From the IMG/VR virus record IMGVR_UViG_3300029060_000152, positions 1-4,529 of that record: DNA of 4,529 bases. One strand, given 5' to 3'. The DNA comes from a virus (lineage: Duplodnaviria > Heunggongvirae > Uroviricota > Caudoviricetes). The notes below the pieces were generated by a model. That model ran no database searches, was not told the DNA's origin, and saw only the letters and a list, made by a program, of their open reading frames with translations. Of the stretch, positions 2,906-3,970 are shown in pieces (position 1 is the first letter of the stretch; the number at the start of each line of letters is the position of its first letter). The position numbers and the translations under genes were made by a program.

Positions 2906-2926
2906 CCCCCTACCTCAACATCAATT

Positions 2927-2950
2927 AGCCACCAGAAGGTGGCTTTTCAT
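2927..2950 (+). terminator. Rho-independent terminator downstream of the cI-like gene
   Basis: Perfect 7-bp stem AGCCACC (2927..2933) / GGTGGCT (2938..2944) with 4-nt loop AGAA, followed by TTTT (2944..2947, the first T shared with the stem), 22 nt after the cI stop codon. Confidence 0.65.
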
Positions 2951-2960
2951 TACCCACCAA

Positions 2961-3014
2961 ATTGCTTATCTCGCAATAAAACACTTGCATAATGCGCAAC
3001 TTCATTTTATCTTT
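2961..3014 (+). promoter_or_regulatory. OL-like operator pair with a candidate rightward early promoter
   Basis: Two 15-bp sites matching the OR copy: TTGCTTATCTCGCAA 2962..2976 and TTGCATAATGCGCAA 2985..2999 (both TTGC-N6-CGCAA). Promoter hexamers are ambiguous: CATAAT at 2988..2993 is a possible -10, or -35 TTGCAT 2986..2991 with -10 TATCTT 3008..3013 (16-bp spacer). Position matches OL/PL in lambdoid phages. Confidence 0.55.
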
Positions 3015-3423
3015 CTCTCCAGACCTACAAACAAGGTACTAACAAAATTTGGTTGTAACACGGCGTATGGCACATGCGTCGTTAGCGGTCTGGGGACGTT
3101 AAAGGGGACAATCCACTCCTTGCTCGGGCAAACAAACCAGGTAGCCGGAATGTGCAAGTCAATGAGGATGCTGATAAGACGCCTAACCAGCGTGGCGATC
3201 CGGTTTGACGCCTGGGAAGAGACCAGGGTGCAACGATGAGGGCATTTATGGAACCGCGACAAAGTGTGGTGCCGTAACTGGCTAAGTGCTCTCAGCGTTG
3301 TGGTAATCCGCGAAATGGCGCGGCGGTAAGTATGGCGGGGTTACTCTTTCCCCGTTGAGGACACCGGATTGTCAGGTTGACCATACGCCTGAGTGACAAC
3401 CCCACCACAACAGCCACTGCTTT

Positions 3424-3470
3424 GGCGGTACCAGTTTGTACACTTGCTTCCGGCTGGTACCGCTCTTTTT
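3424..3470 (+). terminator. Strong hairpin plus T-tract: intrinsic terminator or antitermination-controlled element in the early-left leader; the tail resembles a boxA sequence
   Basis: Perfect 10-bp stem GCGGTACCAG (3425..3434) / CTGGTACCGC (3454..3463) with a 19-nt loop, followed by TCTTTTT (3464..3470). The sequence CGCTCTTTTTACAA (3461..3474) resembles boxA (GCTCTTTAACAA type) as recalled from memory. Confidence 0.5.
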
Positions 3471-3474
3471 ACAA

Positions 3475-3557
3475 AACAGAGAAGAGCATCACCGGACGAC
3501 GGGCTCATAACCCAATCCATCCGGGCGGCAGTCACCGCAGGTGTTCTTCTCTGTTTT
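3475..3557. other. Long imperfect inverted repeat (about 16-bp stem in RNA) of unknown function in the leader of the rightward genes
   Basis: AACAGAGAAGA (3475..3485) is the exact reverse complement of TCTTCTCTGTT (3545..3555). Pairing extends through 3486..3490 / 3540..3544 with two G-U wobbles, enclosing about 49 nt. Flanked by T-rich sequence on both sides. Confidence 0.4.
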
Positions 3558-3607
3558 GTGGAGAAACCAACCGACCTTGCAGGGTCGATATGATGAGGAG
3601 CAGCAAA

Positions 3608-3970
3608 ATGGCTAGCGAACGCAGTACTGATGTGCAGGCATTTATCGGGGAGCTGGACGGCGGCGTATTTGAAACCAAAATCGGCGCTGTTCTCAGTGAA
3701 GTCGCTTCCGGTGTGATGAACACGAAAACCAAAGGTAAGGTCTCGCTCAACCTGGAAATCGAACCATTTGATGAGAACCGTGTGAAAATCAAACACAAAC
3801 TCTCATATGTTCGCCCGACTAACCGCGGGAAAATTTCCGAAGAAGACACCACCGAAACGCCGATGTATGTCAATCGCGGTGGTCGCCTGACTATTCTGCA
3901 GGAAGACCAGGGACAATTACTGACTCTTGCCGGTGAACCTGACGGAAAACTCCGCGCAGCAGGTCATTAA
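3608..3970 (+). CDS. Hypothetical phage early protein, about 120 aa, function unknown (possibly YfdP-like of CPS-53-type prophages; unverified memory)
   Basis: ATG at 3608 is preceded by SD AGGAG (3596..3600) with a 7-nt spacer; in-frame alternative starts are ATG 3590 and 3593. Stop TAA 3968..3970. The ORF-track start at 3377 is a TTG and gives an implausible N-terminal extension. Confidence 0.7.
   Translation: MASERSTDVQAFIGELDGGVFETKIGAVLSEVASGVMNTKTKGKVSLNLEIEPFDENRVKIKHKLSYVRPTNRGKISEEDTTETPMYVNRGGRLTILQEDQGQLLTLAGEPDGKLRAAGH

Follow-up and report, generated by a model that had tools for sequence, protein, structure and literature searches.

A hairpin at positions 3424-3464 of the plus strand, together with the T-tract that directly follows it, is very probably a Rho-independent terminator that forms the 3' end of a small RNA derived from the early-left (PL-type) transcript of a prophage. 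The window analyzed here, a stretch of 4,529 nucleotides, covers the immunity and early region of an SfV/SfII/ST64B/mEp460/cdtI-type lambdoid prophage. The predicted RNA extends from ~3296 to ~3469 (~174 nt) and consists of a structured 5' domain, termed module B, and a hairpin identical to that of sRNA-17 from E. coli K1 RS218. A widespread leader sequence is thereby placed in the DicF/sRNA-17 group of prophage sRNAs, with the terminator hairpin as the common 3' module. At least part of this leader occurs in 4738 of 5426 complete E. coli genomes; it carries no RefSeq annotation, and in phage records it is miscalled as small 'hypothetical proteins'. The comparison also joins two literatures, as sRNA-17, published as a novel orphan sRNA, is structurally a relative of DicF, and it removes a tempting but unsupported reading of the T-tract as a boxA/nut site.

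The hairpin and its place in the early-left leader

The minus strand of the window carries an O-type replication gene (13-954), a CII-like gene (1299-1862; phrog_101), a small ORF between these two, and a Cro-like gene (1855-2115). On the plus strand, a CI-type repressor gene (2213-2905; phrog_4/phrog_6201) with its terminator at 2927-2944 is followed by a yfdP homolog (3608-3970; phrog_204, E 1e-49), which is the first gene of the early-left operon, and by the start of yfdQ. The yfdP assignment also agrees with the annotations of K-12 CPS-53, SfV, mEp460 and phiSTEC1575, and an in-frame ATG at 3590 offers an alternative start. A matching gene order is annotated in SfII, SfV, ST64B, phiSTEC1575 and mEp460. 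Over 2906-3607, E. coli E138 and phage PhiR40_1 are both 100% identical to the window. The leader between the repressor gene and yfdP comprises ~600 nt without a supported gene, and the hairpin lies within it, 140 nt upstream of yfdP. From its position after the cI-type repressor gene, the region 2962-2999 is presumed to hold the early-left promoter and operators. Two operator-like inverted repeats of the form TTGC-N7-GCAA can be read from the plus strand there (2962-2976 and 2985-2999), along with a CATAAT at 2988-2993, and the TTGC..GCAA motif recurs in the cI-cro divergent region (2130-2195); a consensus promoter scan called no promoter at 2962-2999. The ARAGORN scan found no tRNA or tmRNA in the window. 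Rfam searches of the whole window (E<=1) and of 3280-3610 (E<=10) returned noise only, namely a miRNA-like match on repeats of the O gene and matches to the hairpin ribozyme and MIR537 at E 2.8-5.

The preliminary description of this DNA reported a perfect 10-bp GC-rich stem followed by TCTTTTT, and both are present exactly as described. The two arms, 3425-3434 (GCGGTACCAG) and 3454-3463 (CTGGTACCGC), are complementary at 10 of 10 positions and stand 19 nt apart. With G-U pairs included the stem reaches 13 pairs, the loop measures 15-19 nt, and the predicted folding energy is -21.2 kcal/mol (RNAfold). None of 200 shuffled sequences was equally stable (-9.8 +/- 2.5 kcal/mol; z -4.65). The T-tract TCTTTTT occupies 3464-3470 on the plus strand, directly 3' of the stem, with a predicted release site at ~3466-3470. 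On the minus strand no T-run follows the hairpin, so the terminator signal is strand-specific. The transcribed strand thus combines a GC-rich stem with a U-rich tract, as intrinsic terminators do, but the loop is longer than the 3-8 nt typical of them. A consensus terminator scan does not list this hairpin because its loop exceeds the 3-8 nt that the scan allows. DicF-family hairpins are in general long-looped. A loop of this length together with a tract of five U's suggests a modest termination efficiency.

The family to which the hairpin belongs was explored by scanning IMG/VR with a 16-nt motif from module B, which gave about 115 genuine loci, and with a 21-nt motif from the downstream module C, which gave more than 120 loci, about 119 of them extractable; hairpins were tabulated only for the module C set and for non-canonical variants. 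Against genome contigs (596 Gb) the 16-nt motif is too short, and its matches there were mostly chance occurrences in GC-rich genomes, with E. albertii as the only genuine one. Almost every locus has, after module B or before module C, a hairpin whose GC-rich base (mostly GGCGG/CCGCC) gives way to a run of five or more T's. More than ten hairpin types that are unrelated in sequence occupy this one position across more than 200 viral loci, among them the canonical DicF, window, ST64B and P1 types. Stem-base variants are compensatory and preserve pairing, for instance GGUGG/CCACC.

Because a GC-rich base and at least five T's are kept across unrelated variants, we favor an intrinsic terminator over a hairpin that only stabilizes RNA. 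Were the hairpin purely a processing or stability element, the transcript would be read through completely and its 3' end trimmed back to the stem-loop. The long loop and the mere five consecutive U's would suit such an element, RNase III and RNase E are known to shape DicF (PMC10448788), and the U-tract of a read-through RNA is able to pair with GGAGAAA (3560-3566) and thereby extend the stem of module C. This account is nevertheless unlikely given the retention of the terminator signature in many sequence-unrelated hairpins, and the title of Faubladier et al. (1990) names transcription termination as part of DicF 3' end formation.

Relationship to DicF and sRNA-17

Positions 3297-3419 are nearly identical, almost base for base, to the ~120 nt upstream of dicF in the Qin prophage of K-12, and in the 190-nt long DicF of Qin, the structured 5' part is the homolog of module B (3296-3416). 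In the alignment with Qin, the hairpin occupies the place of the DicF terminator directly after this domain. The two hairpins have in common the 5' side UUUGGCGGUAyCAGUUU (UUUGGCGGUA(U/C)CAGUUU) and the 3' side CCGCyCUUUUUA, which includes the stem base and the U-tail. Both lie in a repressor-controlled early operon before the next gene. In contrast to DicF, the window element lacks 19 nt that include the DicF 5' seed UUUCUGGUGACG, its loop differs, and it is followed by module C and yfdP, whereas Qin has another closed-stem domain and dicB. The Rfam DicF model (RF00039; gathering score 48 bits) gave no match on 3280-3610 even at E<=10, and it found nothing in the window, mEp460, SfV, ST64B, P1 or the Rac-like locus. 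As a positive control, DicF of Qin scored 76.7 bits, and the model recognizes canonical DicF only. Antisense complementarity to the ftsZ translation start is also lost: the duplex with the ftsZ leader reaches -24.8 kcal/mol, compared with -38.5 kcal/mol for DicF, and is weaker than 98% of shuffles. A DicF-like control of ftsZ by the predicted RNA was therefore rejected, and the targets and role of DicF are not transferable to it, since both the 5' seed and the ftsZ complementarity are absent.

Two species of DicF have been described, one of 190 nt whose 5' end depends on RNase III and one of 53 nt whose 5' end depends on RNase E, and both derive from the dicB-operon transcript (PMC10448788). 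On the Qin sequence, a count of 190 nt back from the DicF end reaches the base of the stem that closes module B. Terminated ydfABC-dicF and read-through ydfABC-dicFB-ydfD transcripts were both detected at the DicF terminator; the latter accumulates only when RNase E is inactivated, and the wild type shows the dicF-terminated transcript (PMC10448788). This account of the DicF 3' end invokes no antitermination factor (PMC10448788). The preliminary description had argued that the genes beyond the hairpin could be reached only through antitermination, and the coexistence of terminated and read-through transcripts at dicF makes that requirement unnecessary.

The second relative is sRNA-17, a 193-nt RNA of E. 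coli K1 RS218 that was defined by 5' and 3' RACE and Northern blot and is encoded in an mEp460-like prophage (PMC7719688). Its full-length, RACE and Northern primers are given in Table S2 of that study (Front Microbiol 2020; PMC7719688). On mEp460 these primers delimit a 194-nt interval with the 5' end at CGTTGTGG, which corresponds to window position 3296, and the 3' end in the T-tract of the hairpin. The 3' full-length primer is identical to window positions 3438-3469 and the complementation primer to 3442-3469, which maps the sRNA-17 3' end to 3469, inside the T-tract. From the orientation of the RACE and Northern oligonucleotides, it follows that sRNA-17 has the plus strand of the window as its sense strand. 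The hairpin of the window is identical to that of sRNA-17, and so corresponds to a genuine RNA 3' end in a prophage that has the identical sequence. The earlier proposal of a terminator on the early-left transcript ahead of the first genes gains support from this end, which lies within a U-tract as in intrinsic terminators, although the evidence comes from the literature on another prophage. For the window prophage itself, the assignment of the sRNA 3' end would follow from RS218, where RACE registers ends made by termination and by 3' processing alike.

Besides the hairpin and T-tract, the two loci share the start sequence, the upstream module A, the downstream module C and yfdP. They differ in the 5' domain, which is a module B' in RS218 and mEp460 and the Qin-type module B in the window. 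The Northern probe, the 5' RACE primer GSP2 and both 3' RACE primers of the published study have no match in the window. Because module B' is replaced by module B, the predicted RNA is a new combination of known parts.

The authors of the RS218 study treat sRNA-17 as an independently transcribed, ArcA-regulated and trans-acting RNA, propose that it has its own promoter in the stretch equivalent to module A rather than a processed 5' end, and do not discuss a relation to DicF or a role as terminator or attenuator (PMC7719688). The primers of their promoter fragment map to window positions 3047-3068 and 3274-3296. Given its kinship with DicF, sRNA-17 may instead owe its 5' end to processing. In the RS218 deletion mutant, module B' was replaced by a cassette of unstated orientation and the hairpin was kept; yfdP rose from 0.5 to 47 reads (about 95-fold) and yfdR from 0 to 8.5 (PMC7719688). 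As suggested by the same kinship, the increase in yfdP likely stems from an effect in cis on the operon and not from regulation in trans. It could reflect read-through from the cassette, or a hairpin that is a weak terminator on its own.

A terminator that ends a small RNA would work at this locus as follows. The RNA would be cut from the early-left transcript or end within it; polymerases stopping at the hairpin would release it, and the hairpin with its U-tail would provide a stabilizing, probably Hfq-binding, 3' end. The 5' end would be generated by processing at the base of the closing stem, the equivalent of the place of RNase III action in Qin. By analogy with DicF, termination may be incomplete and factor-independent, with some transcripts continuing past module C to yfdP-yfdQ and the remaining genes of the operon. 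With incomplete termination, the hairpin would both yield the sRNA and attenuate yfdP and the genes downstream of it.

Three other phage-related RNAs were considered as possible identities and set aside. The Pas sRNAs are located in late or structural regions. HnrS/EcOnc10 is a 66-nt RNA with its own intrinsic terminator, and nothing in the accessible part of its description ties it to this locus. svsR belongs to the lambdoid prophage NC-SV, where its place is the 3' end of cI, not the hairpin.

The boxA-like string

A boxA-like string at 3461-3474 on the plus strand overlaps the T-tract; CGCTCTTTTTACAA is made up of the last four bases of the stem and the T-tract. Read as a nut-like site, the T-tract would act as a boxA that recruits NusB/NusE, with or without an N-like factor encoded elsewhere, and would let polymerase pass terminators. 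The string CGCTCTTT at 3461-3468 matches seven of the eight bases of what we take to be the lambda boxA (CGCTCTTA). As in lambda nutL and rrn boxA, a short CGCTCTT string lies 3' of an early promoter. A structured element comes after the string. We consider this reading very improbable on several grounds. The resemblance does not exceed chance, as CGCTCTTW occurs once in the window and at least once in 20% of shuffles. Even with three mismatches allowed, neither strand of the whole window matches the 13-nt boxA consensus YGCTCTTTAACAA; chance alone would give 2.5 matches. There is thus no nutR-like partner, and the rightward operon shows no second boxA within the 4.5-kb window.

An N-type gene is likewise missing from the leader. 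The preliminary description saw no N-like ORF between promoter and hairpin, and this observation holds: the sole plus-strand ORF between the promoter region and the hairpin (2985-3239, TTG start, 84 aa) matches no PHROG, and indels of 1, 2 and 3 nt interrupt it in homologs. By the ORF list and PHROG, the leader contains no supported ORF upstream of yfdP and no arginine-rich N-type protein, and such a gene with a second, rightward nut site was not found within 4.5 kb.

Comparison with related loci also bears on the nut-like reading, which the preliminary description had made dependent on conservation of the match in related prophages. YGCTCTTW is carried by only 47 of the 119 related loci; 71 have a T-tract without it and one has no T-tract. 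The match is thus not conserved, and on this ground and on the statistics the boxA/nut reading is refuted. In loci with an identical stem, the T-run is preceded by CTC (46 loci), TCC (33) or CCC (8). The counterpart bases are CCGTCC in SfV and SfII and CCGCCC, CCGACC, CCGCAC or CCAGCC in others, and the CCGTCC, CCGCCC, CCGACC and CCGCAC variants all keep the stem. CGCTCTT thus arises from the 3' stem arm (..CCGC) and a C-to-T (G-U) variant of the family consensus CCGCCCTTTTTA / CCGCCCTTTTT, the T's at the stem base being G-U alternatives to consensus G-C pairs. Half of the boxA-like motif is base-paired in the stem, with CGC(U) among the paired bases. The string is a by-product of the G-U variant at the stem base and has no separate function.

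A large hairpin had also been noted at the place where boxB would stand in a nut site. A large structure is indeed present there, but it is a three-way junction of ~100 nt that starts at the T-tract, and it does not resemble the short hairpin a few nucleotides 3' of boxA that we take lambda boxB to be.

RNA modules around the hairpin

BLAST comparison with phage genomes shows that the leader is a mosaic of RNA modules. Module A (3047-3295, plus strand) is a conserved block at the start of the leader and is 78-82% identical to tRNA-adjoining DNA in P1 and in O157 typing phage 9 and phiV10. Its homolog in P1 lies after tRNA-Ile and before ban, and in the phages of the typing phage 9/phiV10 type directly upstream of tRNA-Arg. 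Indels of 1-3 nt among the homologs argue against coding, and module A is therefore regarded as non-coding.

Module B folds into a four-way junction on the plus strand, supported by alignment to Qin, a Rac-like phage and phage P1. Its helices are designated P1 (3297-3304/3404-3411), P2 (3308-3312/3319-3323), P3 and P4, and it contains a conserved 19-nt loop and a candidate pseudoknot, GUAUGG/CCAUAC. In the alignment, 93.5% of cells are paired and seven pairs are changed on both sides, one of them in the candidate pseudoknot. Four of 500 shuffles reached this number of compensatory pairs and none reached the observed pairing or covariation score, while slid controls were 31-54% paired. By BLAST, module B also occurs in Rac-like and other prophages, 3' of the repressor gene. 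The match in phage P1 overlaps the annotated 'dicF-like region' of the ban operon, where a covarying module B homolog is followed by a strong terminator hairpin just 3' of a repressor-controlled promoter; the hairpin sequence (GCCCATCTTCGGGTGGGC) is unrelated to that of the window, the closing stem is different, and tRNA genes come after it. Where the window has module B, typing phage 9 has a genuine tRNA-Arg(UCU), flanked by module A on one side and a DicF-type hairpin on the other; this arrangement is consistent with a leader processed into several RNAs.

Module C (about 3465-3566, plus strand) is a conserved Y-shaped RNA with a three-way junction, defined by fold and covariation. The inverted-repeat search finds its arms at 3471-3495 and 3535-3559, and the region 3415-3610 folds with -87.8 kcal/mol (z -7.36). 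A long stem (3471-3491/3539-3559) carries two arms, one with the invariant sequence CGACGGGCUCAUAACCCAAUCCAYCCGG and one with a variable GCGG..CCGC helix. Among 18 aligned sequences, 98% of cells are paired and eight pairs are compensatory; these values and the covariation score were reached by none of 500 shuffles, and slid controls were 36-49% paired. No Rfam family matches module C in the searches of the whole window (E<=1) and of 3280-3610 (E<=10). A coding reading of 3393-3593 (phrog_33599, function not assigned) was rejected on the compensatory base-pair changes and on homolog lengths that vary among 102, 103, 104, 105, 106 and 110 nt; the ORFs annotated over module C are probably miscalls.

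These modules are exchanged between phages. The block 3423-3607 is also found in SfV, SfII and SfIV, directly upstream of yfdP (BLAST). Locus L060 joins module B to an ST64B-type hairpin, SfV joins another upstream domain to the window-type hairpin, and in locus L312 module C directly follows the promoter/operator region.

The modules leave room for a regulatory role, which might include antitermination in cis. A put-like RNA would be the most specific form of such a role, with module B or C binding the transcribing polymerase in cis, conferring terminator resistance and replacing N. Like the put sites of HK022 and HK639, the modules are structured RNAs within the early leader of an N-less lambdoid phage, and they are conserved, covarying structures without known function. 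The early-left operons of SfV, SfII and mEp460 have no annotated N, yet xis and int beyond the leader need to be expressed. Module C adjoins the promoter/operator region in L312, as putL does, and in P1 module B and its terminator stand just after the C1-controlled ban promoter and before a long operon. The preliminary description proposed comparison with a put covariance model, and this comparison gives no support. A model built from HK022 putL, HK022 putR and the annotated putL-like RNA of HK639, three sequences only, so that remote relatives could escape it, was searched with filters off against the window and six related loci. It recovered its three sources at 63-99 bits and found nothing above noise in the leaders of the window, SfV, ST64B, Qin and P1; the sole match in the window (E 4.4) lies on the minus strand inside yfdP. 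The leader thus holds no match to the profile of the two-stem, ~74-nt put RNA in sequence and structure as captured by this three-sequence model, a result that bears on membership of the put family and not on functional analogy. The window elements are, moreover, larger than put and lie after or around the terminator.

The experimental record also speaks against a put-like function. Module B' in RS218 does not block 3' end formation at the hairpin, and module B of Qin lies ~0.8 kb from its promoter. Wild-type Qin shows the dicF-terminated transcript, with read-through only when RNase E is inactivated (PMC10448788). There is no experimental hint of polymerase modification, and simpler roles fit equally well: the modules could signal processing, be cut by RNase III or control translation of yfdP. 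A put-like RNA is accordingly improbable here.

A broader proposal, slightly less improbable but still speculative, is that the leader forms an 'RNA operon' of swappable closed-stem modules that include a new cis-acting class and tRNA-shaped processing handles. It would begin with module A, continue with a tRNA or a tRNA-shaped module B, B' or B'' and a DicF-type terminator hairpin, and close with module C. RNase P or RNase III would use the tRNA-shaped modules as processing handles, thereby releasing sRNAs with swappable targeting hairpins. Module C would be the most plausible candidate for the new class of cis-acting leader RNA, which would govern read-through or expression of an early operon without N. 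If true, this RNA would be a functional analog of put or of the lambda N-leader.

Rfam has no family for modules A, B or C, all of which would merit curation. As a separate observation on their distribution, the closed-stem domain that follows DicF in Qin is homologous to the domain that precedes the hairpin in SfV.

Conserved modules of the leader

Module A is a conserved non-coding block of about 250 nt that occupies positions 3047-3295 of the window, 2501-2685 of the P1 locus (L002) and 2501-2745 of the locus from O157 typing phage 9 (L003). Its invariant stretches include ACGGCGTATGGCACATGCGTCG and AACCAGGTAGCCGGAATGTGCAAG. The block adjoins tRNA genes in P1, where it lies at the ban operon, and in phiV10-type phages, and it corresponds to the 'sRNA-17 promoter' fragment in the study of E. 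coli K1 strain RS218. Neither module A nor module C had a match among Rfam families. Module C (3465-3566, plus strand) is a conserved Y-shaped RNA structure located directly 3' of the terminator and 5' of yfdP. More than 120 IMG/VR loci carry this structure, whose covariation is strong, with eight compensatory pairs and 98% pairing. An ORF of 50-66 aa (phrog_33599) is sometimes annotated across this structure.

tRNA-like shape and module order

The predicted fold of module B (3296-3416) resembles an oversized cloverleaf with a closing stem and three arms, and a loop-loop pseudoknot is possible. In typing phage 9, the exact slot of module B is taken by a real tRNA-Arg(UCU) gene (L003 2742-2818), flanked by module A and a DicF-type hairpin. 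Together, the cloverleaf-like module and the tRNA in its place suggest that early leaders carry tRNA-like processing handles.

A closed-stem domain (GTGGTGAATGCGGCTGAGCGCACGCGG ... CACCTGGAGGCACCAGGCAC) follows DicF, the small RNA of the cryptic prophage Qin (L010 2941-3095), and is homologous to the domain preceding the hairpin in SfV, SfII and ST64B (SfV-type locus L006, 2358-2480). Shuffling affects both which leader modules are present and how they are ordered.

Genes flanking the leader

A recent study (PMC12803456) locates the sRNA svsR at the cI 3' end in the lambdoid prophage NC-SV of E. coli NC101. The cI 3' end of the window and its terminator (2927-2944; region about 2850-2950) might represent a counterpart of svsR. 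The true start of yfdP is uncertain, because two in-frame ATG codons (3590 and 3593) precede the one used here (3608) and the longer form is annotated in phiSTEC1575.

Within the O-type replication gene, GACGGGTCAGATTTTGA-like units are directly repeated at 525-660 and are probably origin iterons. These repeats also account for a match to the Rfam miRNA family mir-5880 (579-653), which was rejected as spurious. A stretch of 20 consecutive N (1486-1505), representing masked or unknown bases, falls within the minus-strand CII-like gene.
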